DNA of 64,000 nt, from sequence record NC_024124.2; one strand, 5' to 3'. Numbering within the stretch: position 1 is the stretch's first letter; every line of letters starts with the position of its first letter. The DNA is from Escherichia phage vB_EcoM_JS09. The notes beneath the pieces were generated by a model. That model saw only the letters and a program-made list of their open reading frames with translations. It did no database searches and had not been told where the DNA came from. Made by a program: the position numbers and the translations under genes. This document shows positions 1,633-42,414 of the stretch, one piece after another.

Positions 1633-3203
1633 TAAAAATCCTCTTGTTCTTGGTCGGGGTCTTGGAAACGAGCCTCTTTCGACTCTTCTTCAATTTGCTT
1701 AGCCTCTTGTTCAATTTCCTCGTCAGACATCTGAAGAATATCTTTCATAGCTGTTCTGTGAGAAATATATTTACCAATAAATGGTTCGGCCATCTGAAGC
1801 ATATTAATGCGGCGCTCCAGAATCTCAGCATCCTTTAATTCCGAGAAATAACTATCCCGATGAAATTTTATCTTAATATTATTTATTTCATCATTCCACT
1901 CATCTTCTGTAATAATTCCTTTAAGAATTAAATTAGTTTTAAGCGGGTCTAGGAATATCTCTTCAAATTTATGTTGCAGCTCACGAATAAATTTACCAAA
2001 CGACAATTCATCTCGTGTAATAGAAGTACCAGCATCAAACTGTATACCACCTTGGTCACTTGGAATACGGGTAATAGGAATACGTAAAGCCATATAAAGC
2101 GCATTACGGAACCAACGTACATCTTCCATATTTCCAGTATTATCTGCACCTGGTAATGTATCAACTTCTGTTACTGCTTTACCATCACGTCGTTGTAACC
2201 AATAATCTTCGGTCATCGACATAATATGCTGCTGGTTTTTAATCTTACCTGTAGTAGCATCATATGCAATACGGTTTTTCATCGTATTCATAACATGTTG
2301 CATATGTTCTGCTGCTTTTCTTGAAGGCATATTACCTGTATCAACGTACCATACACGACGATCTGGAGCACGAGTAATACGATAAATTACAACGGCATCT
2401 TCAAGAAGTTTTAATTGGTTCGCCGGCTTAATAGCCCGATGCAAATAACCAATGATATTTTTACCACAACAATCAACTAAACCAGAATGGGCATAAACAA
2501 TCGCGGCTTTAGGGATTTTTATTTTTGTGCCAGCTTCATATATGCGACCATCACAAGCATAAGATTCGTGTGATGTGTCATAAATGAAATATTCTTTATA
2601 ACCCTTGACTATTTTAACACCGGCTTCAGTGGTTGTAATAACTTCACGGACATATTGAACTTGGCGTGGGTCTAAACGACGAAGCTCTTTAATACCTTCT
2701 TTAGGGCGTTTAGGGTCAATAATTTTATGGAAGAAAATTCGAGAATCTACATACCAACGCCTAAAATGGTCTGAACCTTTACGTTGGAAAGATAAATGAT
2801 TCAACACTTCGTTAAATTCATCCAACATCATTGATTTTATATTTGGACTAAATTTTGTGTTGTCTAAATTTATAGAAACGACTTCTGTATCATCTTCATA
2901 TACGATAGCATCGGAAACTATTTCAGAGACTGCATTATCCACTTCATAGTTCGTCATCAAATTTCGATACGTATCGATTAATTCACGGGTTGATTTGAGC
3001 CCTGGTTCTTGACTACCAAACATTCTCTGAAACATAGCATTATATGTTTGCTGTGCTTCATTTTCAGATACTTCGTATTCTTTAGCACCATCGTCTAATT
3101 TTGGTGTAGTGATAGATTCTAAATTTTCTTTTTCTTGGTCTTTGTAATCACGTTCGTCCATTTTTGCCCATGGAGCAAACAAACTTAAGATATTAAATTT
3201 CAT
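1632..3203 (-). CDS. 20: portal vertex protein gp20
   Basis: 523 aa; size and sequence match T4 gp20. Confidence 0.95.
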
Positions 3204-3231
3204 TGTATTCTCCGAATGGGAATTATAGTTA

Positions 3232-3239
3232 TATTTATA
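3232..3239 (-). promoter_or_regulatory. T4-type late promoter TATAAATA upstream of gene 20
   Basis: Plus strand reads tatttata, about 25 nt upstream of gene 20 start. Confidence 0.6.
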
Positions 3240-3287
3240 TGGACTTCTCCGTCATCACGGGAAGCTGGGGATTTCTCCCCAACCAGA

Positions 3288-3779
3288 TTATTCCCACCAA
3301 TCAAGAGCAAGAGTTACTTCGAACGTTTCAATCTCGTTATTGCTGTCCCAGTCAAGAGATACTTCGCCAACGTTAGTAGGCCACAAGCCGACAATTTCAA
3401 CTTCTTTAGTGACCGTTTTAGCATCACGAGCAAATTGACGAACGATAGCAGTCTTTTTATATTCAGCAGGTTTACCACCGGTAATTTCATTACCTTGTCC
3501 TGCTGCAATACCTTGCCAATCAACAAATTTCTGACGAATGCTATGAGCATCATCGTTCATTACTGTAATAGTCCAATCATCGAATGTACGATCACCGGCC
3601 ACGTTAATTTTACGGTTCATATAAGAAACAGGAACCTTTTCAACGATCGCAGCAGGAAGAGCCGTAGCACGACACTGGAAGCTAAAGTTTTGCCCAAGAT
3701 AAGAGATTTCTACTTCGAACAGGTTAGGGCGAGCGAAATCACCTGATTCGAAGGCACGAGTTACGTCATCTACAAACAT
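3288..3779 (-). CDS. 19: tail tube protein gp19
   Basis: 163 aa; matches T4 gp19 size and sequence. Confidence 0.95.
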   Translation of the reverse strand: MFVDDVTRAFESGDFARPNLFEVEISYLGQNFSFQCRATALPAAIVEKVPVSYMNRKINVAGDRTFDDWTITVMNDDAHSIRQKFVDWQGIAAGQGNEITGGKPAEYKKTAIVRQFARDAKTVTKEVEIVGLWPTNVGEVSLDWDSNNEIETFEVTLALDWWE

Positions 3780-3891: not shown

Positions 3892-5874
3892 TTAACCACC
3901 TACAGCACCAATTAGTTCGTCGAAATCGGCACCAGTTGCTGTTGCTACAAAGTTCAACGTAATATAATTTATCGAGCGGGCAGGTTGTAAGTAGAAAGTA
4001 GCTACAAATTCATTACGGTCGATAACTGCTGGGGTGTTATTGGTAGTATCACAAACAACTTTAAAGTTATATACACCGCCGAGAGCTTTAATACCCTGTA
4101 GATATTGAGAAGTCTCTGTACGGAAAGAAGAACGGGTGAATGCGTTGTTCAATTCAAACAGGCGATATTTGGATGCTGAACCAATGTTCGTTTTAACCAT
4201 ATTGAACAAACGACGAACGTTAATACGGTCAAATGGTGAAGGAACAGAAGTGGCAGTTTTATCACCGTACAGAACATACCCATCACCACCGGTACCAGTA
4301 ACAGGGTTAATAGCTTCTTGATACAAACGATCACGCTGTGGTTGGCGAGTTTCAATTGCAAGCTTAATAACGTTAAGAATTTGACCACGGTTATAACCAG
4401 CAGGAGACATCCAAGGCTGAGAAATATTGTCTGTGCGAGCACAAAGACCAGCAATATCAGCAGCTAACGGAACCCAACGATTCACATCATTATATTTGTC
4501 ATATTGATATTTATAGTTACCGTCAATAGCCGCGTAAGTAGAACTTACATTAAAGTTATTATCAGTGTAAGTTCCTGACGCAGTACGCCAATCAACCAGA
4601 TTATCAACTGCACGATTAACAGGAATACCGACTATAGTTGCACGTGGCGGTGAGCAAAGAACCAAGCAATCTTGGCGAGAATCACCAATTGCTACAACAT
4701 GTTTCTGAACTGTAGAAGCAACTTCTAAAGATTCACCTGCACAAGAACCGGCAATAAACAACTGCGCATTAACAGATTCGCGGTCAGCAAACAAATCCCA
4801 AGCTTCCATTAAATCACCAGCGTCAACCGTTTCATTAGATGATAAGCCGCCACCCAGTTTGATTACGCCAGAGAAACCTTTTGGCCAACCTTGTGCAGTA
4901 GCGAAAATATAATTGCTTGCGCCTTTAGCAAAGAAATCATCAATAAAGATATTACTACCATAAATATCGCGTTCACCACGTTTAGTAGAAAGAATTACGC
5001 TCTGAACTACAGCATCGTTACGACGAACGATAATTGCATATTGGTCATCAGTTTGTGGGCCATACCCAAAGATTGCTTTAGCAGTAGATGCACGAGTACC
5101 ACCATCAGGATAAATTTTTAACTGGGCTGAAGCACCTTTGTCATAGTCTGCTTTAGATACGATTTCAATTTCGAGCTGGTCGCCAAGTTCACCAGGATAA
5201 AGAGCAACTACGCCTGGGACACCATATTTTTTAATAGATTCTTGGAAAGTTAGAGAAGTAATAGCTTCTTCAGAAGTTTCAACTTCAGTTAACAGAATAC
5301 CTGAATCGGTTACGATAGAACCAATTGTAATAACGCCAGAGAGTCCAGAAGAAGAACTGGCAACTTCGGCGGTCCAGTTAGAACCCAATGCCGGATATTC
5401 ATTAATTTCTTTTGCACGAGCAATAATTTTACCGGTTGGGATATAAATGTTAAGAATTTTACCATCGACATCAACTGAAGTGACATAACCATCTGCTTCA
5501 ACAGTTTCGGTCAAATACTTAACGATAATTTTATCACCAACTGCATAGTTACTACCAGCAGCAGAGATTGTGAATTCAATATTGCCTGCTACAGGAGATG
5601 AGTTCTTAGCAGTATCACGATCAACTGCGCGTACAACACGAAGGTCATTACCATATTGAAGGAAGTTCATAGCAGACATGAAATAATCTGCTGTATCTGT
5701 ATTAGGAGTACCAAACATATCAACTAATGCAACTTCATCAGTGATTTGTTTAATCTGGAATGCAGGTCCCCATTGGAATTTTCCAGCCAGGGCAGCAGTA
5801 CCAGTGGAGTTATTAACTACAGTACTCTGTACGGTAGTTTCTTTGAGCTCAACGCCCGGAGAGAGAAGTGCCAT
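3892..5874 (-). CDS. 18: tail sheath protein gp18
   Basis: 660 aa; MALLSPGVELKETTVQSTVVNNSTGTAALAGKFQWGP... matches T4 gp18. Confidence 0.95.
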   Translation of the reverse strand: MALLSPGVELKETTVQSTVVNNSTGTAALAGKFQWGPAFQIKQITDEVALVDMFGTPNTDTADYFMSAMNFLQYGNDLRVVRAVDRDTAKNSSPVAGNIEFTISAAGSNYAVGDKIIVKYLTETVEADGYVTSVDVDGKILNIYIPTGKIIARAKEINEYPALGSNWTAEVASSSSGLSGVITIGSIVTDSGILLTEVETSEEAITSLTFQESIKKYGVPGVVALYPGELGDQLEIEIVSKADYDKGASAQLKIYPDGGTRASTAKAIFGYGPQTDDQYAIIVRRNDAVVQSVILSTKRGERDIYGSNIFIDDFFAKGASNYIFATAQGWPKGFSGVIKLGGGLSSNETVDAGDLMEAWDLFADRESVNAQLFIAGSCAGESLEVASTVQKHVVAIGDSRQDCLVLCSPPRATIVGIPVNRAVDNLVDWRTASGTYTDNNFNVSSTYAAIDGNYKYQYDKYNDVNRWVPLAADIAGLCARTDNISQPWMSPAGYNRGQILNVIKLAIETRQPQRDRLYQEAINPVTGTGGDGYVLYGDKTATSVPSPFDRINVRRLFNMVKTNIGSASKYRLFELNNAFTRSSFRTETSQYLQGIKALGGVYNFKVVCDTTNNTPAVIDRNEFVATFYLQPARSINYITLNFVATATGADFDELIGAVGG

Positions 5875-32817: not shown

Positions 32818-33444
32818 ATGTATACTTTTAATGAATTTTTAGCCGAAACGGAAGTAATCACCGAAGCCGGTGTACGTATGACAAAAGAGAAATGGCAAGC
32901 TGCTTACGATGCTATTTCTGGTACAAAAACTAGTACAGAGTTTTTCAAAAACGTTCAAGCCATGTATGGTATCGACACTTCCAGCCAAAAAGAATATTAC
33001 AGAGCTTCTAAAGCATTCAAAGATATTGTTAGTGGCGGTGTTTCTGCTAAATCGGGTTCGCCTAAAGTAAAACCTGCTCCTACCGTTCCTAAACCTGCGA
33101 CCCCTAAAGCAATAGCAAAACCTGAGCCTAAGCCGGAAGTAAAAGCAACTCCTAAAGCTCCCGCTCTTAAGTTTGATACTTCTAGCCTGGAAAAAAAATA
33201 TAAACAACTATCTTCGCTTGTTCGTGATATTGAATCCGATACATCTTCACTCGTTCGTGAATTCAACAGTCTTCGTAATGGCCAACATATCAACAACCTT
33301 GATACCCCAGACCTTTATCGTCTTTATTTGACTATCGAAGGTTTGAAGTATACTCAACCACTTCACGATGCGATTAAAGAAAAACTTCGTCAGGCAGGTC
33401 GTTTGGCTGCTGACGCTGCTCAGTATGCAAAAACTCGTAAGTAA
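32818..33444 (+). CDS. internal-protein-like protein with variant CTS and basic PAK-rich linker
   Basis: 208 aa; N-terminus MYTFNEFLAE resembles CTS; low-complexity KPAPTVPKPATPKAIAKPEPKPEVKATPKAP segment. Confidence 0.55.
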   Translation: MYTFNEFLAETEVITEAGVRMTKEKWQAAYDAISGTKTSTEFFKNVQAMYGIDTSSQKEYYRASKAFKDIVSGGVSAKSGSPKVKPAPTVPKPATPKAIAKPEPKPEVKATPKAPALKFDTSSLEKKYKQLSSLVRDIESDTSSLVREFNSLRNGQHINNLDTPDLYRLYLTIEGLKYTQPLHDAIKEKLRQAGRLAADAAQYAKTRK

Positions 33445-33927: not shown

Positions 33928-34092
33928 ATGACTACTTTAATTATTTGGTTCGATGAAAATGAAGAAACATACTGTGTGAATATTGGTGAAAGTCCAATGC
34001 CTGAATTTGAATCCTCAGATAAAAACTCTGTTGTATCTTGGGCTGAAGGTTATAAAGCCGCTAAAGGTGACGTTGAAATAATTTACATCTAA
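33928..34092 (+). CDS. small hypothetical protein (54 aa, below ORF-track cutoff)
   Basis: ATG after SD gaggag; MTTLIIWFDENEETYCVNIGESPMPEFESSDK... Confidence 0.4.
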   Translation: MTTLIIWFDENEETYCVNIGESPMPEFESSDKNSVVSWAEGYKAAKGDVEIIYI

Positions 34093-34110
34093 GTACGTTT
34101 ATGTTATAGT
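34081..34110 (+). promoter_or_regulatory. early promoter (ATTTAC / TATAGT)
   Basis: 18-nt spacer; upstream of 34139 CDS. Confidence 0.4.
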
Positions 34111-34138
34111 AATCACATCAAATCAAGAGGAAAATAAA

Positions 34139-34436: not shown

Positions 34437-35030
34437 ATGAACACACTGAAGAAACTTGTCGAATTCATCCGCACTAAACTGGGTACTGCTATGGCTAAAA
34501 ATCTGACTGTCGAAGAACAGTATAACGCAGCTGCAGATAAGTTGATTACCCAAATCAAAGAACTAAAAACGGCTTCTGTTAAATCTATTAATGAAGAAAA
34601 ACGTATTCGCGAACTTGTTAATGAAAAGAACAAGCAAGCCGCTTCTAAGGAACGTGAAATTCGTAAGCTCCTGGCCGAAGGACAAGATGTTACCATGCAT
34701 GCTAAGCTTGGTCTTCTGTATCGTCGAACTGCCGAACAACTTAATACAAAAGCTGACGGGTATGCCGCTATGCGAATTGAAATTGCTCGTAAGGTGGTTG
34801 AACTTGACGATGCTCGTCAGAATCTGGCAATCAAACTCGAATACATTCGTGAAACTCGAGCAGCTAATGCCCTTGGTATCTCTACGGCTGATGATGTAAT
34901 TGAAATCGCTGCACTGACTAAGGTTGATATCGAAGACACTCTGACTCGTGTTGAAACGTTCAATGGCACTCCAGCTGGTGTCGAAACCACTTCTGCTGAT
35001 GTACAAGAATATATTAACTCTTTGAAATAA
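34437..35030 (+). CDS. coiled-coil protein
   Basis: Track ORF 34422..; long predicted helical / heptad-rich sequence; function unknown. Confidence 0.55.
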
Positions 35031-35038
35031 AATAATAC

Positions 35039-35060
35039 GGAGGACTCCGGTCCTCCTTTT
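35039..35060 (+). terminator. rho-independent terminator
   Basis: ggaggac-tccg-gtcctcc followed by tttt. Confidence 0.65.
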
Positions 35061-35079
35061 GGATAATAAAGGAGTTAAC

Positions 35080-35676
35080 ATGCGAAACCAAAATAATGAT
35101 ATTGACTCAATGTTCGAAGAGTTCCGAGATAAGGTAAATCCACCTACGTCTTTAGTTGATTCATTACGATATGTTGCAACTGGACGTAAATGGTACTGGT
35201 CGTCTTCTTATGAGACAACTGAATATGCAAATAACCGAAAATCTTTATTAGCCCCAGGTATTATGATTCATGATATCGGAGCTATTGCTAAACTAGTTGC
35301 AGACCATGATATTAGATTCACTGATTTCGTTGCTCCTACGTGGTCTGTTTGTTGTTTAAACACTGAATGGGACTATATCAGTGAACGTTCAGATGATTAC
35401 GTAGGCTTTAGAGACAAGCTTTTAAGGTCTAACATGTTTTATATTGATACAGAAGTTCTGGTCAATAATAAAAAATACTACTTCACTTTAATCGTCGATT
35501 CTGAAACTATGTATGAAGGCAAGCCTTTGCTTAAAAGAGTTGATGCTTTAAGTGCTATTGATGCGCTTTATGAAACTATGGTTGTTAGTCCTAATTTCAC
35601 TAACAATTTAATCCTTGAGCAATTTATTATGGAATGTAGAGAATATGTCAAAGCCAACCCTGTACATGCCAATTAA
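35080..35676 (+). CDS. hypothetical protein
   Basis: Track ORF 35059..; ATG at 35080 after SD aaaggag. Confidence 0.55.
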   Translation: MRNQNNDIDSMFEEFRDKVNPPTSLVDSLRYVATGRKWYWSSSYETTEYANNRKSLLAPGIMIHDIGAIAKLVADHDIRFTDFVAPTWSVCCLNTEWDYISERSDDYVGFRDKLLRSNMFYIDTEVLVNNKKYYFTLIVDSETMYEGKPLLKRVDALSAIDALYETMVVSPNFTNNLILEQFIMECREYVKANPVHAN

Positions 35677-36040
35677 GCCCTGGGCATACGAATACAAACG
35701 TAAATTAATCCCAAATGAAGTACTATTTGGCCCTATTTTAGCTTTAGCATTTTTAATCTTTATGATTATAGGAGCTATTTTAGATTCCAATAAAGTTATA
35801 TCGTCTGATGCAGTGTTTTTACTTATTATACCCGGGTCGTTTATTGTACCATTTTTATTAATGCCTATTAACTGGGTGGGATATTGGTACCAAGGACGTC
35901 ATCATAGAGCCCGATTAAGAGAATGGAAAGTTCAGTGCGCAAAAGCCCAAGCTCAGTATGATGAAGCTGTTAAAAAGTATGAATACGAAGAAGCTATGGA
36001 ATTCGTTAAGGAAATAAGATGCAAAAGCCTCAACTCTTAA
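35645..36040 (+). CDS. small membrane protein, family with C-terminal F-I/V-K-E-x-R tail (member 1)
   Basis: Two predicted TM helices; C-terminus EFVKEIRCK; start uncertain (track 35615). Confidence 0.5.
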   Translation: MSKPTLYMPIKPWAYEYKRKLIPNEVLFGPILALAFLIFMIIGAILDSNKVISSDAVFLLIIPGSFIVPFLLMPINWVGYWYQGRHHRARLREWKVQCAKAQAQYDEAVKKYEYEEAMEFVKEIRCKSLNS

Positions 36041-36378
36041 CCGTATGGCCTTCTCTTGGTGAGAACATTCTAATTTTTATTATGAGTATTGGCATGGGAT
36101 TTGCCTTTGGATTAGTTGGATTTCTTATTGACGGCGTTGTGTTAGGATTTATAGGGAACACTGGTGGATTCACAGACCAATGGCAGGACTTACGGTATAC
36201 CCAAGCCTTTGCATCCATCGCATCATTTTGTACTGTAGTCTATTTTTACTACGATTTTATAAACCATAACAAGAAAAATAAAAAGGTTTACGCTTCTCAA
36301 ATGATTAGTTATAATGAACTCCTAGCTAGACGTGAAAATGAAACAATAGAAAACTTTATTAAGGAATGTAGAAAATGA
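36019..36378 (+). CDS. small membrane protein, C-terminal ENFIKECRK family (member 2)
   Basis: 119 aa; hydrophobic helices; ends ...IENFIKECRK. Confidence 0.55.
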   Translation: MQKPQLLTVWPSLGENILIFIMSIGMGFAFGLVGFLIDGVVLGFIGNTGGFTDQWQDLRYTQAFASIASFCTVVYFYYDFINHNKKNKKVYASQMISYNELLARRENETIENFIKECRK

Positions 36379-36680
36379 GTAAGATTATTGAAATTAAAGT
36401 ACCAGAGTTTAATGATGCCAAATCCGCTTCAGACGCAATTTATAAACTTCTAAATCAAGCTGAACGTATCGAAGAAGAAGCAACAAAGATCGCAGACCAA
36501 TATGCAGTATCGTTTTCTGTAGGTGATTATGGTAGCGGTCGTACTTATTATCCTAAGGGTGAAATCGTATCCCAGTGGATGAAAGATGAAATTGAAAATA
36601 ATGGTGGCGATGTTAAGCGTGAAGGTAATGGTTACGTTATTACTGAAGGTGCTTGGGTTTCGTCTTCTGCGTTGTGCTAA
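36375..36680 (+). CDS. hypothetical protein, GWVSSSxxC C-terminal family (paralogue A)
   Basis: 101 aa; ends GAWVSSSALC. Confidence 0.55.
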   Translation: MSKIIEIKVPEFNDAKSASDAIYKLLNQAERIEEEATKIADQYAVSFSVGDYGSGRTYYPKGEIVSQWMKDEIENNGGDVKREGNGYVITEGAWVSSSALC

Positions 36681-36689
36681 GGAATTATT

Positions 36690-36962
36690 ATGTCTAAAGA
36701 ACAAACCGAACTGGCTGAAGCCGTAGCAAAAATCTATGCAGCTATTGAGGCTGCCAAAGAAATTGCTGATAAACAAAACACAACATTCAACTTGTATCCA
36801 GCTTATGGTATGGGTGGAACCTATCATTCACCCGGACATCTTAAAGCCGATCTTGAACGTTGTACAAAAAACGGCTATGCCGAATGGGCCGACGTTTACC
36901 AATACGACTATAACCTGAGTCTCGAAACTGGTGGTTGGGTTGCATCTTCTCACACTTGCTAA
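36690..36962 (+). CDS. hypothetical protein, GWVSSSxxC C-terminal family (paralogue B)
   Basis: 90 aa; ends GGWVASSHTC. Confidence 0.55.
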   Translation: MSKEQTELAEAVAKIYAAIEAAKEIADKQNTTFNLYPAYGMGGTYHSPGHLKADLERCTKNGYAEWADVYQYDYNLSLETGGWVASSHTC

Positions 36963-36971
36963 GGAAACCGT

Positions 36972-37169
36972 ATGTCTCGTGAATTAGATTGTGCTGTACG
37001 TACCGCAGTAGCTGCTCTAGAAAACCTGTTCCAAATTGCAACAGAAGAACGCGAAGAAGTTACATTATGGATTGAAGATAACGCAGGTCTGAATCTCCAG
37101 GACGCGATCTCATTATCTAATAATAGCATTACTGTTCAAGGCTGGGTATCATCTAGTTATTCTTGCTAA
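36972..37169 (+). CDS. hypothetical protein, GWVSSSxxC C-terminal family (paralogue C)
   Basis: 65 aa; ends QGWVSSSYSC. Confidence 0.5.
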   Translation: MSRELDCAVRTAVAALENLFQIATEEREEVTLWIEDNAGLNLQDAISLSNNSITVQGWVSSSYSC

Positions 37170-37174
37170 AACAG

Positions 37175-37203
37175 TTTACAACAAGATAGGGCTATGTTAT
37201 AGT
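37175..37203 (+). promoter_or_regulatory. early promoter cassette with palindrome GATAGGGCTA...TAGTCCTATC
   Basis: GTTTAC, 17-nt spacer, TATAGT. Confidence 0.55.
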
Positions 37204-37231
37204 AGTCCTATCAAATTAAATGGAGTCTGCA

Positions 37232-37471
37232 ATGATTTATTACGAAAGTATTGGAACTAAAGTGGTTGCTAAAACCATTACTCGTGAAAAGTTTGCAAAG
37301 ATATTCGATATGCGTTATAAAAAATCTGAACACAAAGGCATCCGATTCGAAGATGCGCACTGTACAATTTGCCCTTATAATGAAGACATAAACGGTACAA
37401 TCGTTCCATTGGTAGAGGCTTCACATGATGACCTCTGGGATGAATATAATATCGCATGTCGTGAAATTTAA
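37232..37471 (+). CDS. hypothetical protein
   Basis: Track ORF 37220..; second ATG follows SD ggag. Confidence 0.5.
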   Translation: MIYYESIGTKVVAKTITREKFAKIFDMRYKKSEHKGIRFEDAHCTICPYNEDINGTIVPLVEASHDDLWDEYNIACREI

Positions 37472-37495
37472 GTTAATTAATCCGAGGAAAATATT

Positions 37496-38452
37496 ATGAT
37501 GTTAGTTATTGGTTCTCGTGCACTTCACTATCATGGTCTTATTGATTCTAGCGCTATCAAAAATAGCGATTGGGACTTTATTGCGGACCAAGGTTCTTGG
37601 AATGCATTCAAAAATCAAATGATGGGTGTATATGTTCACCAAGACAACCCTGATGTCCAAGTTTTCAAATGCTTCCATAATGGACGCGAAACTCATTTTG
37701 AAGCATATATTGTTCCGGCAATCACTAATGTTCGTGAATTAGTCGGTGAACTCACTCCTGAAGATTTCACGTCTTCTTATGACCTTTTAAAATACGCCAA
37801 GAAAAATTTGACTAAAGATCGTTTGACCGGGTTTTACTGGGCAACTCCTGAGATATGTCTTGCAATTAAAATGTCTCATCGTTTCAAGAAAAATAATCCA
37901 TTCTTTTTAAAGACTATGAACCATATTCAGTATCTTCGTGGTAAAGGTGTTACACTGAACGATGAACTTACTGAAATTATGCTGAAACGCCAGAAAGAAA
38001 CTTTGAACTATGCTCACCCAGTTCTTGACACTTCTAAAAGTGCGTTCTTTAAAGATGACATCTATACATATGACCATGATACTATTCACGAAGCCATTGC
38101 ACTAACAGACCGTCCGGCTTATACGTTTTACATGAAAGACGGTTCTGAAGTCATGACCTCACGCGAGAAGTTCGAATCGTTACCAGAAATGGTCAAATTG
38201 GCCGGCGTATATGAAGAATCATGTGTACTAGCGTTAGAACGTTCTCAGATTCCTAATAACTTTGAAATTAACCCTGAAGCCAGTTTCATGATGGCATTAG
38301 AAAAAGTCTGCACAATCATCACCTCCGGTTGGTTCCGTGAGTTCGCTTGGGAAAATTATAGCAAAGTAGTAAGTATGTACCAAAGCTTAGGACATGACGA
38401 TTACGTCAAGCGTTTCAAACAAAACTTTCATATGGTAAAACCTTTCAAATAA
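37496..38452 (+). CDS. hypothetical protein, possible nucleotidyltransferase-like N-terminus
   Basis: 318 aa; N-terminal IGSRALHYHGL...SDWDF loosely fits G-S...D-x-D; unverified. Confidence 0.6.
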   Translation: MMLVIGSRALHYHGLIDSSAIKNSDWDFIADQGSWNAFKNQMMGVYVHQDNPDVQVFKCFHNGRETHFEAYIVPAITNVRELVGELTPEDFTSSYDLLKYAKKNLTKDRLTGFYWATPEICLAIKMSHRFKKNNPFFLKTMNHIQYLRGKGVTLNDELTEIMLKRQKETLNYAHPVLDTSKSAFFKDDIYTYDHDTIHEAIALTDRPAYTFYMKDGSEVMTSREKFESLPEMVKLAGVYEESCVLALERSQIPNNFEINPEASFMMALEKVCTIITSGWFREFAWENYSKVVSMYQSLGHDDYVKRFKQNFHMVKPFK

Positions 38453-38464
38453 TTTCACAAAACA

Positions 38465-38494
38465 GTTTACAAGGTCTGTAGTTGTTGATACTAT
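38465..38494 (+). promoter_or_regulatory. early promoter cassette (GTTTAC / TACTAT)
   Basis: Followed by conserved leader caaaacaaatgagtgaatggagatataaaaATG. Confidence 0.55.
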
Positions 38495-38532
38495 AGACCT
38501 ATCAAAACAAATGAGTGAATGGAGATATAAAA

Positions 38533-38733
38533 ATGACTACTTTGAATAAACGTTTCGGTAAAGCTAAACCTGGTTGTGCAGCAAAACGTCGTTATGTTTT
38601 CGCTCAGTTAGAAGATGTAGAGTATCAGATTAATCAAGTTCACATTACTGGTATCGAGCCTATGTGTGGCCTTGAAGCTCTTCGTGAAGTTCGTGATGGG
38701 TATCGTCGTGACATCGAAGAAATGTCAAAATAA
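38533..38733 (+). CDS. hypothetical protein
   Basis: Track ORF 38515..; second ATG after SD ggag; 66 aa. Confidence 0.5.
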   Translation: MTTLNKRFGKAKPGCAAKRRYVFAQLEDVEYQINQVHITGIEPMCGLEALREVRDGYRRDIEEMSK

Positions 38734-38734
38734 G

Positions 38735-38763
38735 TGTACAAACTGATAGGGCTATATTATAGT
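38735..38763 (+). promoter_or_regulatory. early promoter cassette (GTGTAC / TATAGT) with palindrome GATAGGGCTA...TAGTCCTATC
   Basis: Same cassette family. Confidence 0.5.
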
Positions 38764-38789
38764 AGTCCTATCAACTTGAGGAGAATATT

Positions 38790-39095
38790 ATGAAATTAAC
38801 AGAAACCAACCGAATTGGTCTTTTAACAATACTTGCATCACCTTTTTACGCAGCCCTTTCTGTTGCAGTATTACAAAAGGCTTACGATATGGATGGTGTT
38901 CCTGGTTTTATATTCTTATCGCCGTTTTTGCTATTCGTTGGAGCATTGTTATTATATGCCACGACTGGTTTTGACCATAATGTCTGGGTCAATTATAAAC
39001 GTAAATTGTCTGAAGAAGAACACGCAGAAGCTCGTAAAAAAGCTATTGAATCTACCAATCTAGAAAATTTCATTAAAGAATGTCGAGGAAAATAA
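38790..39095 (+). CDS. small membrane protein, C-terminal ENFIKECRGK family (member 3)
   Basis: 101 aa; two TM helices; ends NLENFIKECRGK. Confidence 0.6.
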   Translation: MKLTETNRIGLLTILASPFYAALSVAVLQKAYDMDGVPGFIFLSPFLLFVGALLLYATTGFDHNVWVNYKRKLSEEEHAEARKKAIESTNLENFIKECRGK

Positions 39096-39096
39096 T

Positions 39097-39783
39097 ATGA
39101 ATAGTTCTAAAGTGTTTAATAGTCAAGCTCGTGCAGTAGGTGGTTTTGCCGGCGGTATTTCTAATGATAAAATCAAGAACGAGCCTATGTTCTTCAACTG
39201 TAGTTTAGAATTTGCTTATAATAACGGCGGTCCTATTACTCGTAGCTTCATCATGAACTTGCCGGACGATTGGAACACTGACCAGGTTGTATTTGATTCA
39301 CGAGTCCACATGCTGATGCCTGGTTGGTACCCTGCTATTCCTGGATATCACCATGATGACGTACCGCGCCCAGATATTCCAGTTGGTCAACACTTTATTA
39401 CTGCAGGACAACCTGATTATGACAATCCTCGCTATTTGTCTGAACATATTCTTGGTCTTGTTAACGCTGATGTGTGTCCTACTCATTTTGCAACAGGAAC
39501 TGCAGAGTTCAGTCAGATTCCTGATGGCGAACTTATCTATCGTCAGTGGCACAAAGAAGTCCTCGAAAAAATTGAAAAAGGTGAACTAGAGAAATGGGAA
39601 GCTCCAGATCGTACTCTTCTTCAGTTTGATTGGCAGACATGGCATACAGGTTCCCGCGCAGTAAGTAACGGTTGGCGTTGGTTCGGACGTGTATCTCGTA
39701 ATACAGACCGAGTTAAAAAGATTACCAATGAAATTCGTGTCAATGCTCAAGTTTATCTGGAATTCCCTATGGAAGGCTGGTAA
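39097..39783 (+). CDS. hypothetical protein
   Basis: 228 aa; contains GYHHDD and a later WHTGSR; any metal-binding assignment is speculative. Confidence 0.6.
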   Translation: MNSSKVFNSQARAVGGFAGGISNDKIKNEPMFFNCSLEFAYNNGGPITRSFIMNLPDDWNTDQVVFDSRVHMLMPGWYPAIPGYHHDDVPRPDIPVGQHFITAGQPDYDNPRYLSEHILGLVNADVCPTHFATGTAEFSQIPDGELIYRQWHKEVLEKIEKGELEKWEAPDRTLLQFDWQTWHTGSRAVSNGWRWFGRVSRNTDRVKKITNEIRVNAQVYLEFPMEGW

Positions 39784-40274
39784 TGATTAGCAAAACATAT
39801 TGGTCTAATATAGACGATGTCAACGAAGGTATTTCATACTATTCAGTAGATTGGACAGGATGTCCATCCTACTTAGTGAAACATATTTGCCAAGAATTTA
39901 AAATCGACCAGCCAGCAGGTATTATCGTGAACAGATACATTAATGGATATCAACCTATCGATGAAGTAATACGAACAACTCAAGCTGAGCTTGAAAAGTT
40001 TTTCAATAAGTGCCAATGGACAACAGGATGGATTATATTTGTACCGTCGGTATGGTTTTTTAGTACTAAGGTGAGTTCTTTCGGTTTTGTTGATATTATT
40101 GCTATCTTATTAGCATCTATTATCATAAGTGTTGTTGGTGGCATCATTGGCGGCGGCACTGTCGCTATCATTATTAATCTTATTAAAAGTAGTTTACAAG
40201 AACATAAAGACAAGATAAAAGCCAAGAATAATGAAGTTGAACGTTTTATTACAGAATGCAGGAATTTGAGATGA
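39783..40274 (+). CDS. membrane protein, C-terminal ERFITECR family (member 4)
   Basis: 163 aa; soluble N-domain plus two TM helices; ends ...NNEVERFITECRNLR. Confidence 0.6.
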   Translation: MISKTYWSNIDDVNEGISYYSVDWTGCPSYLVKHICQEFKIDQPAGIIVNRYINGYQPIDEVIRTTQAELEKFFNKCQWTTGWIIFVPSVWFFSTKVSSFGFVDIIAILLASIIISVVGGIIGGGTVAIIINLIKSSLQEHKDKIKAKNNEVERFITECRNLR

Positions 40275-40507
40275 GTATAGCAATTTACATTAAATCAGAA
40301 TCATGTGATAGTTATCTGTACACATACGATAAAGATGTGTCAGAAGAAAAAATCAAAGACGACCTTAATACGGACCTTGATTTGTTCCGTCCTATTGCAG
40401 ATTACAAACTTGCGGTCTCTAATAGTGAAAGTCCATCTAAAGAAACGCGCATTGAAGAATTTATGTCCAAATTAATGGCCAAATCATGGGACCGAGATGA
40501 TGAGTAA
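40271..40507 (+). CDS. hypothetical protein
   Basis: Track ORF 40256..; start at MSIAIYIKSES... Confidence 0.5.
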   Translation: MSIAIYIKSESCDSYLYTYDKDVSEEKIKDDLNTDLDLFRPIADYKLAVSNSESPSKETRIEEFMSKLMAKSWDRDDE

Positions 40508-40955
40508 GAAAAATAAAGTGAAAGAGCTATCAGCCGGTATTATCTTCATGACAAAAGATAAAGAGTTATTCATGGGGCGTGTAACTGGTTCTCGTCCTAA
40601 AGGTGCATTAGCTCATCGGTGGGATATTCCTAAAGGCCGTGTCGAACCCGGCGAATCTCCTATTGAAGCCGCTATTCGTGAATGCGAAGAAGAAACTGGG
40701 TTTACACAATATGACCCTGCCTTCCTGAAAGACCTAGGCGAACATCATTACTCAGACAATAAGAATATTCATCTGTTCCAATATACCATCCCTGTAGAGC
40801 ACGAGCAATTCAGAAACAGTGTTTGTAATTCCTATCATACATTCCCGGACGGACGACAGATTCCTGAATTTGATGCATTCGCTTTAATTAAACCTTCTCA
40901 ATGGGAATATGTAATGGGCAAATCATTATATAAGGTGCTCACTACCCTCCTATAA
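40497..40955 (+). CDS. nudE: Nudix hydrolase
   Basis: 152 aa; Nudix box GRVEPGESPIEAAIRECEEETGF; lies immediately upstream of e as T4 nudE (e.1) does. Confidence 0.85.
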   Translation: MMSKKNKVKELSAGIIFMTKDKELFMGRVTGSRPKGALAHRWDIPKGRVEPGESPIEAAIRECEEETGFTQYDPAFLKDLGEHHYSDNKNIHLFQYTIPVEHEQFRNSVCNSYHTFPDGRQIPEFDAFALIKPSQWEYVMGKSLYKVLTTLL

Positions 40956-40963
40956 GTAATAAA

Positions 40964-40987
40964 TACCTCCTATAAACGTGGGAGGTA
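40964..40987 (+). promoter_or_regulatory. SD-sequestering hairpin upstream of e with late-promoter-like box in the loop
   Basis: tacctcc-tataaacgtg-ggaggta; the 3' arm is the SD of e; loop holds tataaacg (one mismatch from TATAAATA). Confidence 0.5.
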
Positions 40988-40989
40988 TT

Positions 40990-41478
40990 ATGAATATATT
41001 TGAAATGCTTCGTAATGACGAAGGTCTTAGACTGACTTTATACAAAGACACTGAAGGCTTTTGGACGATTGGCATAGGCCATTTAGTAACAAAGAACCCG
41101 TCTTTAGCCGTAGCTAAAGCTGAACTTGACAGAATGATCGGTCGTAAATGCAACGGTACAATTACCCTTGATGAGGCTGAAAAGCTATTTAATGAAGACG
41201 TTGATAAAGCCGTCCGCGGAATCTTGGGTAATGCTAAACTTAAACCGGTATATGATTCTTTAGATGCAGTTCGTCGATGTGCATTGGTCAATATGGTCTT
41301 CCAAATGGGTGTAGCAGGTGTAGCTGGTTTTACTAATTCTCTTCGTATGCTTCAACAAAAACGTTGGGATGAAGCGGCAGTAAATCTAGCCCAATCTAAA
41401 TGGTATCGTCAGACACCTAATCGCGCGAAACGCGTAATCTCAACATTTAAAACAGGAACTTGGAAAGCGTATATATGA
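40990..41478 (+). CDS. e: endolysin (T4 lysozyme, muramidase)
   Basis: [32 protein letters not shown]...; catalytic E11/D20/T26 context conserved; about 162 aa. Confidence 0.97.
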
Positions 41479-42240: not shown

Positions 42241-42351
42241 ATGTATCAAGAATTTATCATTGAAGCAGAGGCCAAAGGTCCTAAAGTAGATGTTGACGAT
42301 ATTGGATATGATTTTAACAACTTCGGAATTATTTCTGGCGGTAAAGCTTAA
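42241..42351 (+). CDS. short CTS-like peptide (36 aa; possibly an internal-protein gene remnant)
   Basis: MYQEFIIEAEAKGPKVDVDDIGYDFNNFGIISGGKA; has the CTS core YQEFI.E. Confidence 0.3.
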   Translation: MYQEFIIEAEAKGPKVDVDDIGYDFNNFGIISGGKA

Positions 42352-42354
42352 ACG

Positions 42355-42384
42355 GTTTACGCTTAAGTATTAATATGGTATAAT
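42355..42384 (+). promoter_or_regulatory. early promoter (GTTTAC / TATAAT)
   Basis: 18-nt spacer; upstream of 42415 CDS. Confidence 0.55.
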
Positions 42385-42414
42385 TGCTCTATCAAAACAA
42401 ACAAGGAAACAAAA

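Follow-up and report, generated by a model that had tools for sequence, protein, structure and literature searches.

Escherichia phage vB_EcoM_JS09 is a T4-type phage of the genus Mosigvirus (RB69-like), and within a 64,000-nucleotide (nt) stretch of its genome (NC_024124.2; here called the window) five early genes between e.6 and nudE code for proteins with closely related C-terminal tails. These are the homologues of T4 e.5, e.4, e.3, and e.2 and of RB69 ORF133c, and their tails are copies of one short C-terminal helix, predicted to be amphipathic and to face the cytoplasm, with the consensus Φ-x-x-[F/W]-[I/V/L]-x-x-C-[R/K]; the Cys is replaced by I, S, V, M, or L in e.4-type proteins, whose genes lie right after e.5. 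We consider it very likely that the motif is maintained at the peptide level and is specific to this locus. The genes themselves are known hypothetical open reading frames (ORFs) of T4 and RB69; new relative to annotations and the searchable literature are the shared tail, its presence on soluble proteins, its rooting in e.5, and a proposed link to a neighbor with a Vipp1/PspA-like predicted fold.

An earlier note on this sequence had described four small membrane proteins with similar tails, encoded by the ORFs ending at 36040, 36378, 39095, and 40274, and all four ORFs are present as described, with their stops, tails, and at least two hydrophobic segments in each. The stops are genuine and not false ORF ends, with frames and tails kept in RB69, T4, JS98, and other phages. 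The four copies are real, but a fifth, in the soluble e.5 protein, had been missed. A six-frame translation of the window contains the pattern F[IVLM]xEC[RK] four times, always within this interval and once in e.5, whereas 200 mononucleotide shuffles average 0.155 occurrences and never exceed 2. Using a leave-out matrix built from the tails of other genera only, with no Mosigvirus or Tequatrovirus sequences, the five window tails rank 1 to 5 of 29,068 positions (28.9, 27.2, 22.3, 16.0, and 11.2 bits), and the next position scores 8.5. The e.4 tail, F-V-K-E-I-R-C-K, has Ile at the canonical Cys position, and its later Cys codon holds the e.3 ATG (AGATGC); the e.4 ATG (35645) in turn falls just past the e.5 motif. 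T4 e.4 ends in IMKFVKESRCKSQS, and although e.3 is just 35% identical to T4 e.3, the tail is nonetheless kept (MKEFVIDCRKIK).

The membrane-bound bearers have Lys- and Arg-rich termini and short loops poor in these residues, so that hydropathy and positive-inside counts predict an N-in/C-in topology with cytoplasmic tails, in line with the cytoplasmic location proposed in the earlier note. In e.4, for example, the transmembrane (TM) segments are at residues 27-45 and 57-75, with 5, 1, and 11 Lys plus Arg residues in the N-terminal, loop, and C-terminal regions. The tails are placed in the cytoplasm because of these counts together with the occurrence of the motif on soluble proteins. The hydrophobic face of the predicted helix consists of positions i, i+3, i+4, and i+7, followed by a basic residue.

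We compared the homologous locus in 13 lineages. These include T4, four T4-like IMG/VR contigs, and ECML-363, RB69 and other Mosigviruses, and JS98 (Dhakavirus); the Kanagawaviruses Kosakonia 305, Enterobacter CIP9, and Edwardsiella PEi26, together with Citrobacter Moon and a Klebsiella Tevenvirinae phage; and the more distant Serratia CHI14 (Winklervirus), Aeromonas SW69-9 (Biquartavirus), Cronobacter leB (Pseudotevenvirus), and a 100-kb metagenomic contig. The tail similarity extends beyond this genome, a point the earlier note had proposed to check, and is kept throughout the 13 lineages, where the motif lies at most 25 residues (mostly at most 15) from the C-terminus of one to six proteins per genome. 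BLAST clustering places the motif bearers in at least 10 unlinked protein groups, all encoded between e.6 and nudE: e.5, e.4, e.3, ORF133c, e.2, a soluble family of 92-99 amino acids (aa; Kosakonia gp141 type) found in the Kanagawavirus, Moon, and Klebsiella phages, a Kanagawavirus TM family, and several singletons. The motif had been presented as a trait of small membrane proteins, which holds for four of the bearers in the window, but e.5 and the 92-99 aa family are soluble, and the motif runs deepest in e.5. When the complete T4 genome is scored with the tail matrix, e.5, the e.2 remnant, e.4, and e.3 alone reach 20.6-29.2 bits, and the next of 72,364 positions scores 10.1.

The T4 remnant reflects an altered e.2 in the reference sequence (NC_000866, 67472-67960), in which the gene (102 aa) is shortened by a 1-nt deletion in an A-run and a 1-nt insertion ~85 nt further on restores the frame, leaving the end of the tail (NNFITECRKLK, then the stop) in the annotated gap between e.2 and nudE. 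Intact T4-type e.2 (162 aa), with the same NNFITECRKLK terminus, is seen in T4-like IMG/VR contigs, and the double frameshift goes back either to mutation in a laboratory strain or to two errors in the sequence. In Escherichia phage LF82-1 (locus 4992-5090), the first 89 codons of e.3 are deleted while the last 30, ending in ENFIKECRK, are kept along with the Shine-Dalgarno/ATGA junction of the next gene; the e.3 protein is therefore dispensable in LF82-1.

Outside the tail, most of the families have no similarity detectable with hhalign, which agrees with the diversity of the N-terminal and TM regions pointed out earlier. For most family pairs the alignment is limited to the last 12-23 columns, at E-values of 1e-4 to 1e-7; e.2 and e.3 align over 17 columns (E 5e-6), e.3 and ORF133c over 21 (E 7.7e-7), and e.5 with the other families over 12-16. 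After removal of the tails no pair is significant, apart from e.4, the Kanagawavirus family, and one Moon protein, which remain weakly linked to one another. With the tails kept, e.3 and e.4 align over 63 columns, and e.4, e.3, the Kanagawavirus family, and the Moon protein may be distant paralogues. The ORF133c and e.3 tails are identical at 8 of 8 residues and differ at 5 of 27 nt, four of them synonymous third-position changes and one a conservative first-position change (Ile/Leu); nucleotide differences with the peptide kept argue for an old copy under purifying selection and not for the product of recent recombination.

As judged by sequence comparison, the motif is most deeply rooted in e.5. 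A hidden Markov model of the e.5 family matched 23 proteins at E ≤1e-3 among 1.84 billion representatives, and F-[IV]-x-x-C-R-x-x-[VI]-[KR] is conserved close to the C-terminus of all 19 of the representatives that were retrieved. In an alignment of 22 e.5 sequences, with ~19% mean identity to the window protein, N94, F182, C186, and R187 are the sole invariant residues besides Met1, and the motif falls within a predicted terminal helix (residues 175-192). By the e.5-family profile, the Klebsiella, CHI14, and Moon proteins are confirmed homologues and the SW69-9 protein a marginal one; the profile does not confirm the leB protein, which is assigned by position and motif alone. IMG/VR scans with e.5 singly and with the e.5 alignment returned six loci, all from close relatives, and a word-indexed protein search with e.2 likewise returned close relatives alone.

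Each motif copy in the window ends at most 28 nt from the next start, and it could be argued that the tails are a gene-junction signal—a ribosome-binding site, translational coupling, or RNA structure—with the peptide as a by-product. The codons do contain good Shine-Dalgarno sequences (AAGGAA, AGGAAA, and GAGGAAA), and the motif Arg is skewed to AGR (63% of motif copies versus 24% genome-wide), especially close to an ATG: AGR and CGN codons number 23 and 9 where the next ATG is within 13 nt and 4 and 8 otherwise (Fisher p = 0.035, from samples that are phylogenetically non-independent, so that the skew is no more than suggestive). Nonetheless, this explanation is largely refuted and we give it very little weight. 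Among 41 distinct DNA instances from 12 or more phages, the motif Phe is coded by TTT 27 times and TTC 12 times, the Cys by TGT 22 and TGC 19 times, the Arg by AGA 15, AGG 9, CGT 7, CGA 4, CGC 2, and CGG 1 times, and the I/V/L position by eight different codons; given this synonymous variation at F, I/V, C, and R, it is therefore the amino acids that are conserved, and F, I/V, and C vary synonymously despite having no Shine-Dalgarno content. There is no fixed distance between the F codon and the following ATG (11 to >60 nt), and in JS98, Kosakonia, Moon, CHI14, and SW69-9 the e.5-type copies have CGN codons and precede the following start by 20-35 nt. The five junction RNAs are no more structured than shuffled sequences (z -0.84 to +1.25), and the tail is the best-conserved nine-column stretch in five of six family alignments. 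The earlier claim of selection on the peptide is thus borne out; the note was also right that the motif is not a DNA junction motif, but its closeness to the next start is not irrelevant. The Arg codon skew near the next ATG suggests a nucleotide-level overlay, and certain codons in and beside the motif probably also provide the Shine-Dalgarno of the next gene, with K-E read as AAGGAA and R-K or R-G as AGGAAA or GAGGAAA. In ORF133c, the codons CGA GGA AAA make up the GAGGAAA Shine-Dalgarno of the ORF132c homologue (repeat D9, a shared ribosome-binding site). This overlay appears to bias synonymous choice without explaining the peptide. The shared ends could also be mini-homologies for modular gene shuffling by recombination, or simply recent copies, in a region that is plastic: e.5-e.4-e.3-e.2 are contiguous in T4, whereas RB69-type genomes have ~3.4 kb extra (ORF139c-ORF132c) between e.3 and e.2, the e.5 and e.3 tails match at 20 of 22 nt (repeat D20), and the LF82-1 deletion has an endpoint inside e.3. 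We judge this highly improbable and nearly refuted, as copies within a genome differ mainly synonymously, the signature of old copies under purifying selection rather than of recent exchange; the e.5 motif is invariant across lineages with differing neighbors; and the true repeated cassettes, each an early promoter with a stem-loop, are at 34075, 37168, 38459, 38728, and 42349, not at the tails.

The constant companion of the motif is e.6. An e.5-like motif bearer lies directly after e.6 in all 13 lineages, including the Biquartavirus, Winklervirus, and Pseudotevenvirus representatives and the metagenomic contig, where the surroundings are different; in SW69-9 and leB the e.6/e.5-like pair is among nrd and thioredoxin genes and not beside nudE. 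Between this phage and T4, e.6 is 88% identical, compared with 46% for e.5, 50% for e.4, 35% for e.3, 27% for e.2, 62% for nudE, and 81% for lysozyme (e); conservation of 88% against 27-50% for the motif bearers is the pattern expected of a multi-partner hub. An AlphaFold2 (AF2) model of e.6 (predicted local distance difference test [pLDDT] score 74.5) shows a long helical hairpin with a helix at its N-terminal side and short helices at the C-terminus, which corresponds to the PspA/Vipp1/ESCRT-III layout of helix alpha-0, a long alpha-1/alpha-2-3 hairpin, and short C-terminal helices. In a Foldseek search of the PDB with this model, the top eight matches are all Vipp1/IM30 (E 9.4e-4 to 3.1e-2, probability 1.0), followed by archaeal CdvB2 and PspA. 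The e.6 sequence profile finds Vipp1 three times in the PDB, colinearly (6-139 versus 6-141) and at non-significant E-values of 0.96-2; there is no Pfam match at E ≤1, PspA_IM30 included, and hhalign of the e.6 alignment with E. coli PspA gives a probability of 0.5%. We found no paper assigning e.6 to Vipp1/PspA in the literature on phage PspA/ESCRT-III homologues. On the strength of the model, e.6 is probably Vipp1/PspA-like (ESCRT-III superfamily) at the fold level, and not an established family member. Some GenBank records label e.6 homologues as a 'host specificity protein', for which there is no profile support.

We propose that the tail helix would act as a docking or assembly element, uniting e.5 and the lineage-variable inner-membrane proteins (e.4, e.3, ORF133c, and e.2) in a single assembly on the cytoplasmic side of the inner membrane during the early phase of infection. 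Taken as a whole, this docking or assembly role, which we read from sequence patterns, is possible but falls a little short of probable. In its most speculative step, the common partner of the tails would be e.6, the helical-hairpin protein that is always adjacent, and the membrane proteins would recruit or regulate it as the PspC cytoplasmic C-terminal domain binds PspA; we advance this partnership tentatively, by analogy, and it may well be wrong. More doubtful still is a complete phage-encoded PspA/Vipp1-type module for membrane maintenance or remodelling, composed of e.6, e.5, and small inner-membrane adaptors, in which all components except e.6 would carry ΦxxFΦxxCR to couple them to an e.6 polymer. 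Several observations weigh against these proposals. The basis of the e.6 link is synteny, relative conservation, and analogy; the tail is unlike the PspC C-terminus; and the predicted model of e.5 is of low confidence (pLDDT 59.8). The replacement of Cys in e.4-type proteins means that thiol-dependent chemistry cannot be universal, and in SW69-9 and leB the motif is on the e.5-like protein alone, so that the helix may primarily serve e.5, in folding or self-association.

The main rival to docking on e.6 develops that last point into homotypic assembly without e.6, the helix being a self-association (bundle-forming) helix of e.5 that neighboring membrane proteins acquired as copies, tethering e.5 to the membrane via a mixed helical bundle. 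Motif conservation is deepest in e.5, which is the sole bearer in distant genera; helices that pack against one another typically have a hydrophobic face as narrow as this one (i, i+3, i+4, i+7); and the match of the ORF133c and e.3 tails at every one of the eight residues, with 5 of 27 nt different, suggests old local copying. We hold it to be rather unlikely, since it leaves unexplained the strict e.6-e.5 adjacency and the exceptional conservation of e.6, and nine residues are short for an autonomous bundle. Unlikely to a greater degree is that the helix binds a host factor in the cytoplasm, for instance a protease or adaptor (the tail being a degron), a chaperone, or a protein of cell division or the envelope; one host machine would then regulate several of the phage proteins or be hijacked by them. 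The exposed C-terminal position, the cytoplasmic location, and the portability across unrelated proteins would suit such a ligand, as would the early timing of the genes and their place between the tRNA genes and lysozyme, where the accessory content is plastic. However, no Pfam, NCBIfam, or PADLOC profile matches, we know of no E. coli C-terminal recognition motif that it resembles, and phages of hosts as varied as Aeromonas, Edwardsiella, Serratia, and Klebsiella retain the motif, while it is the phage-encoded e.6 that constantly accompanies it. We reject, as having next to no probability, a relationship of the tail to the T4 internal-protein capsid-targeting sequence (CTS), targeting the proteins to the prohead core or protease. 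In this window and in T4 there is a superficial likeness (h-x-x-F-I-x-E versus Y-Q-E-F-I-A-E), and CTS-bearing genes lie just downstream (41475, 42235, 42415, and 42756). With the tail matrix, however, the six CTS sequences of the window score between -7.1 and +2.6 bits, and the tails themselves 11-29; beyond Mosig-, Tequatro-, and Dhakavirus the Glu that follows F-I-x is replaced by G, M, Q, L, Y, N, or S; and the CTS has no counterpart of the invariant Cys-Arg. The CTS is moreover N-terminal, and the e.x proteins are early membrane proteins.

T4 is among the best-studied viruses, and about half of its genes are without known function, the whole e.2-e.8 block included. One peptide signature joins uncharacterised early genes for both membrane and soluble proteins, five in this phage and as many as six in others, to one invariant neighbor, and a list of orphan ORFs becomes a single testable module. 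If the membrane module does exist, it would be relevant to the way in which T4 maintains an energised membrane during infection, lysis inhibition, and superinfection; if it does not, the tail remains an example of a short linear motif that is portable among phage proteins, with probable dual coding for a downstream ribosome-binding site.

Genes of the e.6 to e.2 interval, with the C-terminal tails (up to the stop) and motif positions of the five motif bearers; TM, transmembrane
Homologue	Coordinates	Strand	Product and context	PHROG (E-value)	Tail	Motif (position)
e.6	34437..35030	+	197 aa, all-helical (predicted); directly upstream of the e.5-like motif bearer			
e.5	35080..35676	+	198 aa from ATG 35080, ORF opens 35059; soluble	2607 (1.6e-94)	..LILEQFIMECREYVKANPVHAN	LEQFIMECR (35614-35640), 11 residues before the stop
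e.4	35645..36040	+	131 aa; predicted two-TM hairpin with cytoplasmic C-terminal helix	2604 (2.4e-60)	..AMEFVKEIRCKSLNS	variant AMEFVKEIR(CK) (35993-36019)
e.3	36019..36378	+	119 aa; predicted membrane protein	2330 (4.5e-50)	..IENFIKECRK	IENFIKECR (36346-36372)
RB69 ORF133c	38790..39095	+	101 aa; predicted two-TM hairpin	9798 (3.3e-66)	..LENFIKECRGK	LENFIKECR (39060-39086)
ORF132c	39097-39783		between ORF133c and e.2			
e.2, long form	39783..40274	+	163 aa; N-terminal soluble domain, two predicted TM segments	2203 (3.5e-53)	..VERFITECRNLR	VERFITECR (40236-40262)

Bases 35000-41000 of the window match 338 phage records, the top one being 97.2% identical across the full length, and the + strand is the direction of early transcription. 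The ORFs were identified from the annotated relatives ATK47, RB69, and T4 and from PHROG profiles with full-length coverage (E 1.6e-94 to 4.5e-50). GenBank notes in ATK47 and RB69 give the same gene names, and the position between e.6 and nudE-e-denV on the early strand follows the order in T4 and RB69; downstream of e.2 are ORF130c, nudE, e (lysozyme), and denV. The four ORFs that the earlier note could not assign to a known family are thus assignable, as T4 e.4, T4 e.3, RB69 ORF133c, and e.2 (PHROGs 2604, 2330, 9798, and 2203), and precomputed Pfam labels are available for close e.2 homologues (PF26896) and for e.5 (PF26876). The genes are tightly packed: the e.4 start reaches into e.5 by 32 nt, an ATGA joins the e.3 stop to the next start, and the e.2 stop and the next start share an ATGA at 40271. 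Pfam, NCBIfam, and PADLOC scans of the five motif proteins and their neighbors gave no match above noise, save DUF7275/DUF7277 (in the ORF134c homologue) and FRD3; for the five proteins, there was no profile match in these databases to superinfection-exclusion or lysis-inhibition (Imm, Sp, rI), anti-defence, or defence families. Annotations and the searchable literature, queried by gene name and by motif concept, give neither a function nor a shared tail for e.2, e.3, e.4, e.5, or ORF133c. Several GenBank records (e.g., ECML-363, 3084-3476) label e.4 homologues as 'sulfurtransferase', which no Pfam or NCBIfam model supports. Between e.6 and e.5, at 35039-35056, is a GC-rich perfect hairpin (GGAGGACTCCGGTCCTCC) followed by TTTTGG, and T4 has an analogous hairpin (GGGGCTTCGGCCCC) at the same place; it may be a terminator or an mRNA-stabilising element separating e.6 from the motif-bearing genes.

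Other repeated signatures occur in and around this region. A second conserved C-terminal signature in the locus is that of three small tandem ORFs: the products of 36375-36680, 36690-36962, and 36972-37169 (101, 90, and 65 aa; PHROG 899) end in G-x-W-V-[S/A]-S-S-x-x-C immediately before the stop, and this family (W-x-[S/P]-S-S-x-x-C at the terminus) is present in three to five tandem copies in JS98, Kosakonia 305, CHI14, and contig L028. The ORF135c homologue (37220-37471) ends in WDEYNIACREI; it has a C-R near the terminus but departs from the tail motif, with a low matrix score, and its homologues in JS98 and Kosakonia end in YVAEI and TYCYEI, respectively. The ORF135c end is probably unrelated to the tail motif. 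A five-member direct repeat (34075-34124, 37168-37217, 38459-38508, 38728-38777, and 42349-42398) consists of copies of a T4-type early promoter (GTTTAC..N17..TATAGT/TATAAT) embedding an inverted repeat, for example ATAGGGCTAT..ATAGTAGTCCTAT, and resembles the promoter/stem-loop cassettes proposed for gene shuffling in T4-type phages. ORFs starting at 32818, 41475, 42235, 42415, and 42756 have CTS-like N-termini (MKTYxEF[IL]xE or MYTFNEFLAE), so that five internal-head-protein-like genes flank the locus.

The closest known counterparts of the window genes are T4 e.2, e.3, e.4, and e.5 and RB69 ORF133c, which are orthologues by full-length profile matches and e.6-nudE synteny; they are catalogued as separate families and annotated as hypothetical or predicted membrane proteins. 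Among systems with a shared terminal peptide, the CTS of T4 IPI, IPII, and IPIII is likewise ~10 residues long and carried by diversified accessory proteins from a plastic region of the same genomes. It differs in being N-terminal (MKTYQEFIAE), in being cut by the gp21 prohead protease after I/L-x-E, and in its consensus, and CTS proteins are located in the prohead core whereas the tails are predicted to be at the cytoplasmic face of the membrane. MinD and FtsA have C-terminal amphipathic membrane-targeting helices, and the phage tail is similarly a short cytoplasmic amphipathic helix of aromatic, aliphatic, and basic residues at the extreme C-terminus. It is set apart by the narrowness of its hydrophobic face, by its acidic residues and invariant Cys-Arg, and by its occurrence on proteins that are already membrane-embedded, features that point to protein-protein rather than lipid contact. 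In the Psp system, the cytoplasmic C-terminal domain of small inner-membrane proteins binds a PspA-type helical-hairpin protein (PMC5596341). The phage set differs from it in that some of the proteins with the motif are soluble (e.5) and a genome can have as many as six adaptors, and there is no sequence homology of the tails to PspB/PspC (no Pfam or NCBIfam match) or of e.6 to PspA_IM30. The likeness lies in the predicted fold of e.6, which best matches Vipp1/PspA, and in e.4, ORF133c, e.3, and e.2, which, like PspB and PspC, are predicted from hydropathy and positive-inside counts to be small inner-membrane proteins with a cytoplasmic C-terminal domain.

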